The translations under genes and the position numbers were made by a program. Shown piece by piece: positions 5,759-37,063 of a stretch of DNA of 39,106 bases (position 1 is its first letter; each line of letters begins with the position of its first letter). The stretch is from the UHGV virus genome UHGV-1488538, one strand, 5' to 3'. Below the pieces are notes generated by a model. It did no database searches. It was given only the letters and a program-made list of their open reading frames with translations, and had not been told where the DNA came from. This DNA comes from a virus.

Positions 5759-5805
5759 TAATTATGCGTATTTGGTTTGATGTCAATAGATATGAGTTAA
5801 AAAAA

Positions 5806-5820
5806 TTACCCATTAGGTAA
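5806..5820. promoter_or_regulatory. Operator TTACC-CATTA-GGTAA (OL-like, upstream of -35)
   Basis: Perfect palindrome about 20 bp upstream of the TTGACA -35. Confidence 0.7.
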
Positions 5821-5831
5821 TAGTATAGGCA

Positions 5832-5877: not shown

Positions 5878-6462
5878 TTATTGTTTGTTTTTTTCGTTCT
5901 GGTTGATGACAAATTCAATGTAACTTTCGATCTTTGCTTTCTCGGTTTCGGGTAACAATGCGTAGCGCGAGCGGTCATAGTTGATAGTCGCAGGGTCGTG
6001 CGGGTGAATCAGTAGTTCATATCCGTGACGCCCGAATGCGGATGCAACATTCTCCAGGGTGGAAATGGAAACGCTGACCTCATTGTTTAACAGGCGACTG
6101 ATTGTCACCTGGGCGACGCCGGATGCGCGGTGAAGTTTTCCCTGAGTTGAAAGGTCGCGGCTTTCACTCATCCAGCGTTCCAGGTTGTGAGCTGCCAGCT
6201 GACCAATGTCGCTTGGGCCGACAGGCTGAAAACCTTCCTGAGAAAGCGAGCGATCGATATCAAGCCAGTTACGGGGTTTATTGGCGGCAGCTTCAATTTT
6301 TCGCGCAACCTGGTCGCCGATAACCTTCTTGCCAAGAGCCCAGCGGTTTACCAGATTTGCCTGAGTTCCAAGTTTTTCTGCCATCCGCGTCTGAACACCA
6401 TTGAATTCACGGTCGATCAAGTCGTTGAGATTTTGCCTGCGGACGTCCTGGATACTTTTCAT
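5878..6462 (-). CDS. Immunity repressor, tandem HTH (XRE-like), no peptidase S24 domain
   Basis: 194 aa; two HTH-like segments (TRMAEKLGTQANLVNRWALGKK and ASGVAQVTISRLLNNEVSVSISTLENV); divergent from Cro-like gene with operator cluster between. Confidence 0.75.
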   Translation of the reverse strand: MKSIQDVRRQNLNDLIDREFNGVQTRMAEKLGTQANLVNRWALGKKVIGDQVARKIEAAANKPRNWLDIDRSLSQEGFQPVGPSDIGQLAAHNLERWMSESRDLSTQGKLHRASGVAQVTISRLLNNEVSVSISTLENVASAFGRHGYELLIHPHDPATINYDRSRYALLPETEKAKIESYIEFVINQNEKNKQ

Positions 6463-6517
6463 TTTCTGGAAAATCGCCTCATATATGAATCAGTAGATGA
6501 TTCAATTTAAAGCAATA

Positions 6518-6532
6518 TTACCCAACAGGTAA
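6518..6532. promoter_or_regulatory. Operator TTACC-CAACA-GGTAA (OR-like site 1)
   Basis: Perfect palindrome between divergent repressor and cro-like genes. Confidence 0.7.
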
Positions 6533-6534
6533 AT

Positions 6535-8836: not shown

Positions 8837-8848
8837 ACGCCTCGACAA

Positions 8849-8863
8849 TTACCTGTTAGGTAA
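8849..8863. promoter_or_regulatory. Operator TTACC-TGTTA-GGTAA
   Basis: Perfect palindrome about 20 bp upstream of candidate -35 TTGATT (8883-8888). Confidence 0.65.
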
Positions 8864-8910
8864 TAAAATATTCTAAAATCTATTGATTTCGTGTCTTATG
8901 TGGTTTTTAA

Positions 8911-15063: not shown

Positions 15064-15140
15064 TGGCGTGGCATGCAGGATTCGAACCTGCGACCAACCG
15101 CTTAGAAGGCGGTTGCTCTGTCCAACTGAGCTAATGCCAC
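15064..15140 (-). tRNA. tRNA-Arg (anticodon UCU)
   Basis: 77-nt cloverleaf folded by hand on the minus strand: 7-bp acceptor stem GTGGCAT/ATGCCAC, D-arm GCTC/GAGC, anticodon stem ACCGC/GCGGT with loop CTTCTAA, T-arm GCAGG-TTCGAAT-CCTGC, encoded CCA. Confidence 0.9.
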
Positions 15141-32255: not shown

Positions 32256-32891
32256 CTATTTTATTGGCAGCTTATGCTTTGAAATTATGGCCAATCTGTT
32301 TTGGAAGTTTTCCGCATCACCCCACAACCAGGTTTCACCTTTCTCAAGCTCTTCCTCGTTATTCATCTCTATCAGCTCGCATGTCATCATGTCGTAACCA
32401 TAGAGGTGGAGGCCAAGTTCCAGTGCGTCATACATGCGAGCCTGCCAGAACGACATGCCTTCATGAGTCTGGTTGCGATCTGACACGATGATATCGTACC
32501 GTTCCAAGAGGTAGTTCATGAAGATGATGCCGGCGAAATCATGAAGCACAGCACGATGCTTAGGCTTCTGGGTTCTCCATACCAATATCTGCGTGACAGG
32601 ACGGCAGTTAAGATAGCTGTCAGGCTGGATAATGACACGATTGTAATACACTACCTCTTCGGTGAGGTCATTTATCAATGACAGTTCAAAGTGCGCCTGT
32701 GGAATCTCGCCTTTCTTACGATCGTCTACACGGACAACGCGGTATCCAGGAGCCAGAGAAACGCCTTTGACATCAGATGTGACATCGTTGCCGTTCACTA
32801 ACTCTGAATACAGGGCGCGGTTGTCTGGAGTTTCGTTCAGATGAGCGAAAACCTCAGTTACCTTTGCCGGATTCAGCAGTTGTTGTGGCAT
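32256..32891 (-). CDS. Hypothetical protein (211 aa), immI-region gene of unknown function
   Basis: ORF track; own upstream operator sites. Confidence 0.6.
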   Translation of the reverse strand: MPQQLLNPAKVTEVFAHLNETPDNRALYSELVNGNDVTSDVKGVSLAPGYRVVRVDDRKKGEIPQAHFELSLINDLTEEVVYYNRVIIQPDSYLNCRPVTQILVWRTQKPKHRAVLHDFAGIIFMNYLLERYDIIVSDRNQTHEGMSFWQARMYDALELGLHLYGYDMMTCELIEMNNEEELEKGETWLWGDAENFQNRLAIISKHKLPIK

Positions 32892-33120: not shown

Positions 33121-33831
33121 TCAGAAGAACCCTGCCTTGTCGTTGATGTACTCCGCGTGGGTCTGGATATCACGCAGGCATTTGCTCACACCGACGATGT
33201 AGCAGAACATGGTGGTCAGCTCCGCCGCCGCGCCCGATACATCGTGCCCGTCTTCCTGTAACTGGTTCAGCAGATTCATCAGCAGTGAGTTCTCCGTCAG
33301 GCCGAGAACACCAGACGGCGAATGAATCAGGCTGCGGTAGCCGGGCTTCAGTGGGGCGCTGTAGGTTTTGTTCTCTATCTTCATCGCCTGCATTACTGCT
33401 GACGCCGTGGCGTTGGCTACCTGGTCGGCAACCATCTTTATGCGTTCTTCCTGCGGGAGCGAGTTTTTAATGTAACTTCCGGTGCGGCGGATCTGAGGAA
33501 GAACCTCACCTGTAACCCATTTACGAAAGCGGTAGGGGATAGTGCCTGGTGTCACTGCGTCGCGGCAGCGGAGGATCAGTGTGTAGAGGCCTGACTCGGA
33601 GATAATGTTGATCTCTTTTACTCGGCTGTCAAAAATTGCACGATGTTCATGCCCTATGTTGAACATAGACCTTTCATCATCATCCAGTTTTTCAAGTGCT
33701 TGGGTGACGTTTTGGATACGCAGCGCACTACAAACGTCTTGGGCTACAAACCATGGTTGGCCATCGATAATGATGGAACGGATAGGGTTAACAGATTCAA
33801 ATTTGAAGATGGCAGTTTGAGCATTAGCCAT
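33121..33831 (-). CDS. Antirepressor (Bro-N/KilA-N N-terminal domain plus C-terminal domain)
   Basis: N-terminus FKFESVNPIRSIIIDGQPWFVAQDVCSALRI is a classic Bro-N/Ant signature; start at ATG 33831 with GGAG RBS (track GTG at 33846). Confidence 0.8.
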   Translation of the reverse strand: MANAQTAIFKFESVNPIRSIIIDGQPWFVAQDVCSALRIQNVTQALEKLDDDERSMFNIGHEHRAIFDSRVKEINIISESGLYTLILRCRDAVTPGTIPYRFRKWVTGEVLPQIRRTGSYIKNSLPQEERIKMVADQVANATASAVMQAMKIENKTYSAPLKPGYRSLIHSPSGVLGLTENSLLMNLLNQLQEDGHDVSGAAAELTTMFCYIVGVSKCLRDIQTHAEYINDKAGFF

Positions 33832-33859
33832 GGTGGTTATCTCCACTTAGTGATTTTAA

Positions 33860-33890
33860 TCACCACCGCAACGCCAATTACTGGTGGTGA
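33860..33890 (-). promoter_or_regulatory. Leader hairpin TCACCACC/GGTGGTGA with alternative pairing to ACCACC at ant start codon
   Basis: 8-bp inverted repeat; a third complementary hexamer lies immediately 5' of the ant ATG. Confidence 0.4.
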
Positions 33891-33986
33891 ACTGGACAAG
33901 GTTGGCGTACCGGCCTAAGTGGTACCGGCGTCCTTTCGGACCCCTGCCCAGCCCACCATAATTCGGATATAGCTGTGCTTAACGCA

Positions 33987-34010
33987 TAAAAAAACCACGT
34001 CTGGCGTGGT
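33987..34010 (-). terminator. Intrinsic terminator within ant leader (ACCACG-ccaga-CGTGGT plus U7)
   Basis: Hairpin followed by 7 T on minus strand. Confidence 0.55.
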
Positions 34011-34026
34011 ATGCGCCACTTAGTAA

Positions 34027-34128
34027 CCCGGGACGCCAATCCCGGCACTGGATTTTGCCAGTGCCCGATTACTATGGCACAAGAGGAGTGCGATGTAAAT
34101 TTACTGCAAAGGTAAATATAAGCACTCC
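34027..34128 (-). ncRNA. Candidate structured RNA / cis-regulatory leader upstream of antirepressor
   Basis: Three hairpins (34083-34128 AGGAGTGC...GCACTCCT; 34044-34065 GGCACTGG...CCAGTGCC; 34028-34045 CCGGG...CCCGG) then terminator; no ORF. Confidence 0.4.
34101..34115. promoter_or_regulatory. Operator-like TTACT-GCAAA-GGTAA inside leader hairpin
   Basis: 1 mismatch. Confidence 0.4.
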
Positions 34129-34146
34129 TATTGGTAATTTCAAATC

Positions 34147-34419
34147 TTATCTGGTTTGTTTTCGTAATTGTTCGGCACAATAGTCGAGATGTGTTTGCAG
34201 ATCCTGCATAGACATCTGTGAGCTGGTGACGTAGTTAATCAGTGCAGTCAGTTCGGCAAGTGGGCCATCGACATTAAATCCATCCTTATCGAGATCCCGG
34301 AGTAATTTCATCAAGTGCGATCCCTCCACCAGTGACCTGACGCCTCCCGGCGTGTGAATCCTTTCGGTAAATCCCTCTTCCAGTGGATAGTGATACTGCT
34401 GCATCTTAATCTTCTCCAT
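34147..34419 (-). CDS. Small protein homologous to antirepressor C-terminal domain; LexA-controlled (candidate SOS antirepressor)
   Basis: 90 aa; about 45% identity by eye to Ant residues ~170-241 (IH.P.GV..L.E.S.LM.LL..L..DG..V.G..AELT, D.QTH..Y); LexA box directly upstream. Confidence 0.7.
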   Translation of the reverse strand: MEKIKMQQYHYPLEEGFTERIHTPGGVRSLVEGSHLMKLLRDLDKDGFNVDGPLAELTALINYVTSSQMSMQDLQTHLDYCAEQLRKQTR

Positions 34420-34424
34420 GCAAT

Positions 34425-34444
34425 AACTGTATATTTATACAGTA
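34425..34444. promoter_or_regulatory. LexA (SOS) box AACTGTATATTTATACAGTA
   Basis: CTGT-N8-ACAG with AT-rich spacer, near-consensus; overlaps putative -10 of small ant-like gene. Confidence 0.8.
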
Positions 34445-34481
34445 GCAAATAATTTGTTTGCTATCCAGCACGTTTTGCAAA

Positions 34482-34496
34482 TTACCTGAAAGGTAA
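34482..34496. promoter_or_regulatory. Operator TTACC-TGAAA-GGTAA
   Basis: Perfect palindrome between LexA box and tailspike gene. Confidence 0.65.
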
Positions 34497-34600
34497 TATC
34501 TATTCATATTCACAGTCTTTCTATCCATATATGGTTTTTTGGGTAATAGAATAACCAGATATGCGGCGCAACGGGTGCTGCGACTATCTGGAGATTTAAC

Positions 34601-37063
34601 ATGACGGTCTCAACCGAAGTTGACCACAACGAATACACAGGTAACGGCGTTACGACATCATTTCCGTATACCTTCCGTATTTTCAAAAAATCCGACCTGG
34701 TTGTTCAGGTGTCTGACCTTAACGGTAACGTTACAAAACTAGTGCTGGATGCTGGTTATACGGTAACAGGGGCGGGAACTTATAGTGGCGGTGCAGTGGT
34801 TCTTCCGTCGCCGCTTGCTGCTGGCTGGCGAATCACGATAGAGCGTGTGCTTGATGTGGTGCAGGAGACTGATCTTCGCAATCAGGGAAAATTTTTCCCC
34901 GAAGTTCATGAGGATGCATTTGACTACCTGACGATGCTGATCCAGCGATGTTTTGGGTGGTTCAGACGTGCATTGATGAAACCATCTTTGCTTGCAAAAT
35001 ATTACGATGCAAAGCAAAACAGAATATCTAACCTTGCCGATCCATCACTTGAGCAGGACGCTGTAAATAATCGCTCAATGCGTAATTATGTCGATGCTGC
35101 AATCGCCGGAGTTATTGGTGGTTTTGGTTGGTTTATTCAGTATGGTTCTGGAGCGGTATACAGAACGTTCCAGGATAAGATGCGTGATGGTGTCAGCATT
35201 AAGGATTTTGGAGCTCAAAATGGAATCTTAAATGATAACAAGGATGCTTTTACAAAATCATTACATTCGTTTAGCAGTGTTTTTGTTCCGGAAGGGGTAT
35301 TCAATACATCTTTAGTTTCTCTTTCACGTTGTGGCTTGTACGGAACAGGTGGGGGAACGATAAAACAGTATGACAGAGATGGTAATCATCTGGTTTTTAA
35401 CATGCCCGATGGTGGCATGCTTAGTACGCTAACAATTATGGGAAATAAATCAGATGATAGTGTGCAGGGACACCAGGTGTCATTTTCAGGTGGCCATGAT
35501 GTATCGGTTAAAAATATCAGATTTACAAATACGCGAGGACCAGGATTTAGCTTGATCGCTTATCCGGATAATGGTATTCCGTCAGGTTACATTGTTAGAG
35601 ATATAAGAGGAGAGTATTTAGGGTTCGCAAATAATAAAAAAGCAGGTTGTGTGCTTTTTGATTCATCGCAAAATACGCTAATTGATGGTGTGATAGCCAG
35701 AAATTATCCTCAGTTTGGTGCAGTGGAACTTAAAACAGCAGCAAAATATAACATTGTCAGCAATGTTATTGGTGAAGAGTGTCAGCACGTTGTTTACAAT
35801 GGAACTGAGACGGAAACTGCCCCAACGAATAATATCATTAGCAGTGTAATGGCTAACAACCCAAAATACGCCGCAGTAGTTGTTGGCAAGGGGACTGGTA
35901 ACCTGATTTCGGATGTGCTGGTTGATTACTCTGAATCGGACGCAAAGCAGGCGCACGGCGTCACCGTTCAGGGAAATAATAATATTGCCAGTAATATTCT
36001 AATGACTGGGTGTGATGGGAAAAATGAATCAGGAGATCTGCAGGCATCTACAACCATTCGTTTCTTAGATGCTGCACGCAGTAATTATGCGTCAATATTC
36101 CCCATGTATAGTTCTTCCGGCGTGGTTACCTTCGAGGAAGGGTGTATCAGGAACTTTGTTGAAATTAAACATCCGGGTGACAGAAATAATATTCTGAGTT
36201 CTGCATCAGCGGTGACTGGTATTTCCAGTATAGACGGCACTACAAATAGCAATGTTGTTCACGTCCCTGCGCTTGGTCAGTACGTTGGGACTATGTCAGG
36301 GCGTTTTGAATGGTGGGTTAAATATTTTAACCTTGCTAACCAGACGCTTGTTTCTGCAGATAAATTCAGAATGCTTGCTGAAGGCGATGTATCTCTGGCT
36401 GTGGGAGGCGGTATAAGTTCGCAATTGAAATTATTCAATAGTGATAATACTAAAGGCACTATGTCGCTAATAAATGGAAATATTCGAATATCTACTGGAA
36501 ATTCAGAATATATACAGTTTTCTGATTCAGCCATGACACCATCGACAACGAATACTTATTCTCTTGGGTTGGCTGGTCGTGCATGGTCGGGGGGATTTAC
36601 CCAGTCAGCGTTTACGGTGCTGTCCGATGCGCGTTTCAAGACTGCTCCAGAGGTTATTGATGAGAAAATACTGGACGCATGGGAAAGAGTGGAATGGGTT
36701 TCATACCAGTACCTTGACAGGATCGAAGTGAAAGGTAAAGACGGAGCAAGATGGCACTTTGGTGCAGTTGCGCAGCATGTTATCAGTGTATTTCAGAATG
36801 AAGGCATAGATGTGTCACGACTGGCATTTATCTGTTATGACAAGTGGAATGAGACCCCGGCAGAATACAGGGATGTGACGGAAGAAGAGCATTCTGCAGG
36901 AGTTTACCCACTTATACAGACAAAGGTTCTGGTACGCGAAGCCGTCGAGGCTGGTGAATGTTACGGTATCCGTTATGAAGAGGCTCTGATTCTGGAATCT
37001 GCGATGATGAGACGCAGGGTTAAAAAGCTGGAAGAGCAAGTTTTGCAATTAACAGGGAATTGA
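34601..37063 (+). CDS. Tailspike with beta-helix depolymerase-like centre and C-terminal self-cleaving chaperone (S74-like) domain
   Basis: 820 aa; C-terminal LSDARFKTAPEVIDEKILDAWERVEWVSYQY... and coiled-coil tail match the intramolecular chaperone autoproteolysis domain. Confidence 0.8.
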   Translation: MTVSTEVDHNEYTGNGVTTSFPYTFRIFKKSDLVVQVSDLNGNVTKLVLDAGYTVTGAGTYSGGAVVLPSPLAAGWRITIERVLDVVQETDLRNQGKFFPEVHEDAFDYLTMLIQRCFGWFRRALMKPSLLAKYYDAKQNRISNLADPSLEQDAVNNRSMRNYVDAAIAGVIGGFGWFIQYGSGAVYRTFQDKMRDGVSIKDFGAQNGILNDNKDAFTKSLHSFSSVFVPEGVFNTSLVSLSRCGLYGTGGGTIKQYDRDGNHLVFNMPDGGMLSTLTIMGNKSDDSVQGHQVSFSGGHDVSVKNIRFTNTRGPGFSLIAYPDNGIPSGYIVRDIRGEYLGFANNKKAGCVLFDSSQNTLIDGVIARNYPQFGAVELKTAAKYNIVSNVIGEECQHVVYNGTETETAPTNNIISSVMANNPKYAAVVVGKGTGNLISDVLVDYSESDAKQAHGVTVQGNNNIASNILMTGCDGKNESGDLQASTTIRFLDAARSNYASIFPMYSSSGVVTFEEGCIRNFVEIKHPGDRNNILSSASAVTGISSIDGTTNSNVVHVPALGQYVGTMSGRFEWWVKYFNLANQTLVSADKFRMLAEGDVSLAVGGGISSQLKLFNSDNTKGTMSLINGNIRISTGNSEYIQFSDSAMTPSTTNTYSLGLAGRAWSGGFTQSAFTVLSDARFKTAPEVIDEKILDAWERVEWVSYQYLDRIEVKGKDGARWHFGAVAQHVISVFQNEGIDVSRLAFICYDKWNETPAEYRDVTEEEHSAGVYPLIQTKVLVREAVEAGECYGIRYEEALILESAMMRRRVKKLEEQVLQLTGN

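Follow-up and report, generated by a model that had tools for sequence, protein, structure and literature searches.

Introduction

The closest described relative of the locus reported here is the Ant/Rep pair of Salmonella phage SPC32H (PDB 5D50, 5D4Z). Kim & Ryu (2013, J Virol 87:11775) and Kim et al. (2016, PNAS 113:E2480) reportedly found that a small antirepressor, encoded by a LexA-repressed gene, inactivates a non-cleavable repressor in this phage genus. The SPC32H literature covers the LexA control, the uncleaved repressor Rep, the binding of Ant to Rep and the stoichiometry of the complex. According to PMC7380047, the SOS- and LexA-dependent synthesis of Ant inactivates the repressor, and PMC9638917 (citing Kim et al. 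2016) describes that Rep binds DNA as a tetramer, which is disrupted when an Ant tetramer binds two Rep dimers.

LexA-repressed antirepressor genes that are located outside of the immunity region and act on a non-cleavable repressor are also known as gfoA, gftA and gfhA of Gifsy-1, -2 and -3, as AntC of N15 and as Tum of phage 186, the C-terminal half of which is DinI-like (PMC3121763). These are prophages of the sipho- or myovirus type. The antirepressor Ant of P22 is under the control of Mnt, Arc and sar, and the immI region of phage P1 is arranged like isrK-anrP of Gifsy-1. In the Gifsy-1 arrangement, PisrK-isrK-orf45-anrP, the IsrK RNA opens the leader in trans and turns on the translation of the antirepressor (PMC4825925). 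P22 Ant is outside of LexA control and dispensable for SOS induction (PMC7380047).

Here we analysed a stretch of 39,106 nucleotides of viral DNA, in the following called the window, for which a preliminary description had pointed to a small, stand-alone antirepressor gene behind a LexA box. We consider it very likely that the locus is an SPC32H-type, LexA-controlled Ant/Rep induction switch in an E. coli phiV10-like prophage.

Results and Discussion

The window carries an integrase gene near its start and lysis genes at its far end. Set against the gene map of SPC32H, this is the layout expected of an integrated Uetakevirus. In a DNA comparison, the surroundings of the locus are 91-98% identical to the Escherichia phages HEMP4, TL-2011b, vB_EcoP_ZX5 and phiV10 and, judged by order and identity, the window is a prophage of the phiV10/epsilon15-like podophage type (Uetakevirus) in E. 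coli. The small gene and its neighbour are located as follows.

34147 to 34404, minus strand: ant, small antirepressor gene, 85 aa from the conserved ATG at 34404, with the SD sequence GGAG at 34414-34417
34601 to 37063, plus strand: tailspike gene, the divergent neighbour of ant, a synteny shared with tsp/ant of SPC32H

The divergence of ant and tailspike gene is found here as in SPC32H, epsilon15, phiV10, Tyrion and BUCT554. In SPC32H, ant is flanked by the virion-protein gene cluster and by the divergently transcribed tailspike gene, and the order in the window is equal. The gene is divergent from the tailspike gene and distant from the rep/cro immunity region, which is the genomic position that an SPC32H switch requires. 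The immI Ant of P22 is alike in that it is an accessory antirepressor gene next to a tailspike gene in a temperate podophage. We also note a tRNA gene on the minus strand at 15067-15140 (Rfam, 73.3 bits), in the place of the tRNA-Arg of SPC32H.

The preliminary description had assigned an ORF of 90 aa (34147-34419, minus strand) to the small gene. This ORF exists, but its conserved start gives a protein of only 85 aa. In every aligned phage a GGAG is followed 9-10 nt later by an ATG, which in the window is ATG 34404, and because the alignment shows this shared GGAG together with the ATG, we placed the start there. The 90-aa version is an in-frame extension of the conserved ant frame by five upstream codons. 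The ATG at 34419 was rejected as a start: no SD sequence precedes it, the predicted transcription start is about 13 nt away, and this ATG is out of frame in SPC32H and missing from the Klebsiella phages.

The protein is identical to SPC32H Ant at 74 of 83 positions (89%, E=2e-57, pairwise) and one residue shorter at the N-terminus. When we searched the solved structures with it we obtained one match, chain E of PDB 5D50, an 'Anti-repressor protein' of 86 aa (E=1.7e-47), and it also matches phrog_450 (E=3.5e-48). In GenBank, the gene is named 'ant: anti-repressor protein' in SPC32H and in SPC32N, and the SPC32H record uses the name rep for the repressor gene. By these matches the gene at 34147-34404 on the minus strand is the ortholog of SPC32H ant. 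The implied novelty of a minimal inducer made of a C-domain only is hereby lost, as the protein is the same as the already characterised 86-aa Ant. The dN/dS value against SPC32H is 0.047, with synonymous sites near saturation, showing that ant is under strong purifying selection. With tblastn we found ant in 35 of 50,697 phage records, all of them Uetakevirus-like, and Rep in 36 records, which are essentially the same set.

Searches of Pfam and NCBIfam assigned Ant to no family, and neither collection has an Ant model; matches to DUF724 and UpsF were far under the cut-offs and were taken as chance. A DinI/Tum-like domain, present in 186 Tum, was not detected in the window Ant with Pfam or with NCBIfam. 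The fit to the model of Gifsy-type prophages and coliphage 186 that had been proposed holds for the circuit logic, which the Gifsy antirepressors, 186 Tum and N15 AntC have in common with the window ant. It is an analogy and not a sign of family membership; unlike these sipho- and myovirus-type prophages, the window is of the podophage type.

The putative target of Ant is encoded far away from it.

5878 to 6462, minus strand: rep, immunity repressor of 194 aa with two HTH domains, the candidate target of Ant

Rep aligns end to end with chain A of PDB 5D50, annotated 'Repressor' (E=4e-42). To SPC32H Rep the identity is 42%, and to the repressors of phiV10 and ZX5 it is 100%. Pfam returned HTH_3 and related HTH models only and gave no Peptidase_S24 match at E<=0.1, which agrees with the earlier statement that the immunity repressor has no RecA-cleavable S24 domain. 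When the identities of Ant and Rep to the window proteins are compared phage by phage, we find 84% and 78% for Tyrion, 85-89% and 42% for the Salmonella phages, and 60-64% and 45% for the Klebsiella phages. The two values are not in step across the genus, which hints at cross-reactive antirepressors or at a shuffling of modules. The immunity specificity probably differs from that of SPC32H.

We also found a candidate for the DNA site of Rep.

34481 to 34497, no strand assigned: palindrome ATTACC-N5-GGTAAT, without mismatch, in the intergenic region of ant and tailspike gene, conserved in the alignment

Sixteen sites with at most two mismatches are present, versus 1.0 expected, and they lie mostly outside long ORFs. 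Examples are 5805-5821, 6517-6533 (adjoining rep), 8848-8864 and 34481-34497, the last just upstream of the putative ant promoter. The equivalent of the palindrome in epsilon15 is annotated 'repressor; lysogeny', and ATTACC-N5-GGTAAT is probably the Rep operator. If so, Rep would act at many promoters throughout the genome.

The following control elements were assigned upstream of ant.

34425 to 34444, minus strand: LexA (SOS) box, AACTGTATATTTATACAGTA, reading TACTGTATAAATATACAGTT on the ant strand
34439 to 34467, minus strand: predicted ant promoter with -35 TGGATA (34467-34462), a 17-nt spacer and -10 TACTGT (34444-34439)

The box TACTGTATAAATATACAGTT agrees with TACTG(TA)5CAGTA at 18 of 20 positions, and its CTG and CAG arms are both intact. 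At up to three mismatches to the 20-mer consensus, 34425-34444 is the sole site in the 39 kb window, and shuffled sequence gave 0 matches across 100 shuffles. The claim of a near-consensus box CTGT-N8-ACAG upstream of the small ORF is thereby confirmed. The bare core is weaker evidence than the 20-mer because it occurs three times in the window versus 0.61 expected; the other two occurrences have G+C-rich spacers. The distance needs a correction: the box does lie upstream of the ORF, but 6-25 nt rather than 8-25 bp from ATG 34419, and 21-40 nt upstream of the conserved ant start. From the tailspike start it is 157 nt away.

For a comparison within the genus we built an alignment of nine phages over the region between ant and the tailspike gene. 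The box is retained in all seven aligned relatives from E. coli, Salmonella and Enterobacter, while the flanking positions vary. In both Klebsiella phages, BUCT711 and Kp4865-1, the left arm reads ATG and not CTG, and these phages may have a weaker LexA control or another control in its stead. SPC32N differs from SPC32H at one position of the aligned region, where the right arm of the box has A for C (TATACAGT to TATAAAGT). In the alignment, the window box falls in the columns that hold the box of SPC32H and the mutated position of SPC32N. An operator mutation in SPC32N reportedly renders Ant constitutive (Kim & Ryu 2013). We take the C-to-A change to be this published mutation, and its position in the box fits the constitutive phenotype.

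Could the palindrome at 34425-34444 be something other than a working LexA operator for ant, that is, an A+T-rich palindrome that arose by chance or a regulator of the tailspike gene? The threefold occurrence of the core in the window, the location in a divergent intergenic region common to both genes and the change from CTG to ATG in an arm of the two Klebsiella relatives would speak for this. We nevertheless regard it as extremely improbable, given that the full 20-mer is unique and absent from all 100 shuffles, that its distance is 21 nt to the start of ant versus 157 nt to that of the tailspike gene, and that the box is conserved amid varying flanks, with the SPC32N variant mapping inside of it. 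We keep the assignment as a LexA operator of ant. TGGATA and TACTGT with their 17-nt spacing are conserved in the alignment, and we infer that they form the ant promoter, the -10 element of which would coincide with the left arm of the LexA box. A scan with consensus promoter models reported no site for ant; the two hexamers are weak matches.

The switch would operate as follows. In the lysogen, LexA of the host would sit on 34425-34444, overlapping the ant promoter, and would keep ant off. Upon DNA damage RecA would be activated, LexA would cleave itself and ant would be transcribed. Ant of about 85 aa, a tetramer in SPC32H, would bind Rep (5878-6462) and break its DNA-binding tetramer. Rep, which has two HTH domains and is without an autocleavage domain, would then leave its operators, and the lytic genes would be expressed. 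That the E. coli pair behaves like the SPC32H pair is inferred by analogy; the binding of Ant to Rep is extrapolated because the window Ant is 89% and the window Rep 42% identical to the SPC32H protein.

The two systems are alike in genus, in the order of ant and tailspike gene, in the 89% identity of Ant, in the full-length homology of Rep without an S24 domain and in a LexA box at the same position over the ant promoter region. They differ in the 42% identity of Rep, and in that SPC32H, like epsilon15, is without the isrK-C4-Bro-N::Ant-like module that comes after ant in the window. By this comparison, the window locus shows all those features defining the SPC32H Ant/Rep switch that can be examined in sequence. 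The central idea of the preliminary description, a non-cleavable repressor inactivated by an SOS-induced antirepressor, is supported by the orthology of Ant and Rep to SPC32H, the box, the synteny and the absence of S24.

Downstream of ant lies a second gene with a related domain.

33121 to 33831, minus strand: Bro-N::Ant-like protein, 236 aa from ATG 33831 within ORF 33121-33846, Bro-N by Pfam with E=1e-19
33139 to 33369, minus strand: Ant-like C-terminal domain of the Bro-N protein (residues 155-231), matching 5D50_E with E=1.2e-13

Residues 155-231 cover nearly the entire solved Ant chain. The window Ant and this C-terminal domain are identical at 33 of 78 positions (42%, E=6e-17), which bears out the earlier view of the small protein as a paralogue of this domain. 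In the phage collection, the Ant-like domain, free or fused, is found in 34 records, the same Uetakevirus-like set as Rep, a distribution that fits a Rep-targeting domain. Directly downstream of the Bro-N gene lies an ORF of 211 aa (32256-32891, minus strand) that matches phrog_1349 of unknown function (E=2.9e-78) and gave no family in a Pfam search; it seems to travel together with the inserted module. In HEMP4 and TL-2011b, the Ant-like domain is matched at three places, pointing to a third copy in these phages. In phiV10, the Bro-N gene (PhiV10p23/p22, L002 3074-3753) is annotated as a protein of 194 aa plus a separate ORF of 29 aa, and two tblastn pieces are needed to cover its Ant-like domain, with the small ant intact; the phiV10 Bro-N gene looks frameshifted.

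The relation of the two proteins raises the question of which one is the working antirepressor. The 2022 paper on ZX5, the only experimental one on a phage whose Rep is identical, presents the Bro-N protein as 'the' anti-repressor and mentions neither LexA nor the small Ant (PMC9782041), which in the GenBank record of ZX5 is a hypothetical protein. Overexpression of the ZX5 'anti-repressor', ORF4, lowered lysogeny about 1000-fold (PMC9782041); its C-domain is 100% identical to that of the window Bro-N protein, and the Rep proteins are identical as well. One may thus propose that in the E. coli phiV10-like lineage the Bro-N::Ant-like protein does the work, and that the small Ant modulates it, for example in mixed oligomers, or is partly redundant. 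The domain of about 78 aa that both proteins have in common would allow this, as would the tetrameric state of SPC32H Ant given in PMC9638917, and the divergence of Rep far exceeds that of Ant. Yet the Salmonella relatives are without the Bro-N gene and use Ant alone, selection on ant is strongly purifying, the LexA box is kept in the E. coli phages, and it is the Bro-N gene that is apparently split in phiV10 (194 aa and 29 aa), with ant remaining intact. We consider this division of labour improbable and stay with the small Ant as the SOS-induced antirepressor.

Between ant and the Bro-N gene we detected the following RNA elements.

33988 to 34064, minus strand: isrK-family sRNA, Rfam RF01394, 67.7 bits versus a gathering score of 50
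34010 to 33994, minus strand: intrinsic terminator of isrK, the first predicted terminator downstream of ant
34099 to 34071, minus strand: promoter-like site TTTACA-17-CATAGT, from which transcription would begin at the isrK 5' end
33880 to 33963, minus strand: antisense RNA element of the C4 family, located in the Bro-N leader, Rfam RF01695, 66 bits versus a gathering score of 45

The pair of isrK and C4 recurs in phiV10, Tyrion and Kp4865-1. In SPC32H and epsilon15, from which the whole isrK-C4-Bro-N module is absent, convergent genes come directly after ant. A terminator is located there in epsilon15; at the corresponding place in the window, from the end of ant to isrK, none was predicted. 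Two further observations concern promoters in this region. A promoter-like site TTGAAA-17-TATATT (10/12; 34083-34143 region, minus strand) begins right after the ant stop, and an ATTACC half-site seen by eye adjoins its -35 element. Also by eye, a near-palindrome TTTACC-N5-AGTAAA is found just upstream of the likely isrK promoter; isrK may also be under Rep control.

For each of the two C4 blocks, CCACTTAG and ACGCCAA, isrK contains a complementary counterpart (CTAAGTGG and TTGGCGT), which recurs identically in the Bro-N leader. The SD sequence of the Bro-N gene is overlapped by one of these leader copies. A further, third block of C4 would pair over the start codon at 33831. The exact complementary blocks in C4, isrK and the Bro-N leader are 7-8 nt long. 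Duplex energies calculated for the whole isrK or C4 RNA against the downstream leader were no better than those of shuffled controls. We dropped these energies as evidence for antisense pairing and used the search for exact blocks instead.

Together, these elements resemble P1/P7 immI (c4-icd-ant) and Gifsy-1 isrK-anrP (PMC4825925), and the likeness concerns the Bro-N gene and not the small ant. An isrK sRNA, a terminator and a C4 element stand ahead of an antirepressor-like gene on the same strand, as in the known systems. The differences are that we saw, by eye, no upstream ORF with a stop overlapping the Bro-N start (ATGA-type), that the C-domain of the Bro-N protein is SPC32H-Ant-like, and that the module follows directly downstream of a LexA-controlled gene.

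This arrangement leads to a more speculative proposal, which we think is rather unlikely to be correct as a whole: the known LexA-Ant switch could be wired in series with an RNA-gated second antirepressor, forming a feed-forward loop triggered by the SOS response. Because no terminator is predicted between ant and isrK, the SOS-induced ant transcripts would enter isrK. They would end at the isrK terminator or read through it, and more RNA of IsrK sequence would be made. Following the Gifsy-1 precedent, this RNA would free the ribosome-binding site of the Bro-N::Ant-like gene from an occlusion of the C4 type. If this were true, Rep would be attacked by two proteins with a common Rep-binding domain.

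Conclusion

In summary, the finding is a correct rediscovery of a known system and not a new one. As a discovery it has little value, since the mechanism, the protein family and a crystal structure of Ant with Rep are already on record for another member of the genus. Its value lies rather in the annotation. The ant segment is present in 534 of 5,426 complete E. coli genomes, among the matches listed it is labelled 'hypothetical protein', and neither Pfam nor NCBIfam holds a model that would name it. Additionally, the small ant would be the gene to delete when phiV10-type phages for O157 typing or biocontrol are to be protected against SOS induction. Less charted is the neighbouring Bro-N::Ant-like paralogue with its putative RNA gate, on which experiments could still be worthwhile.
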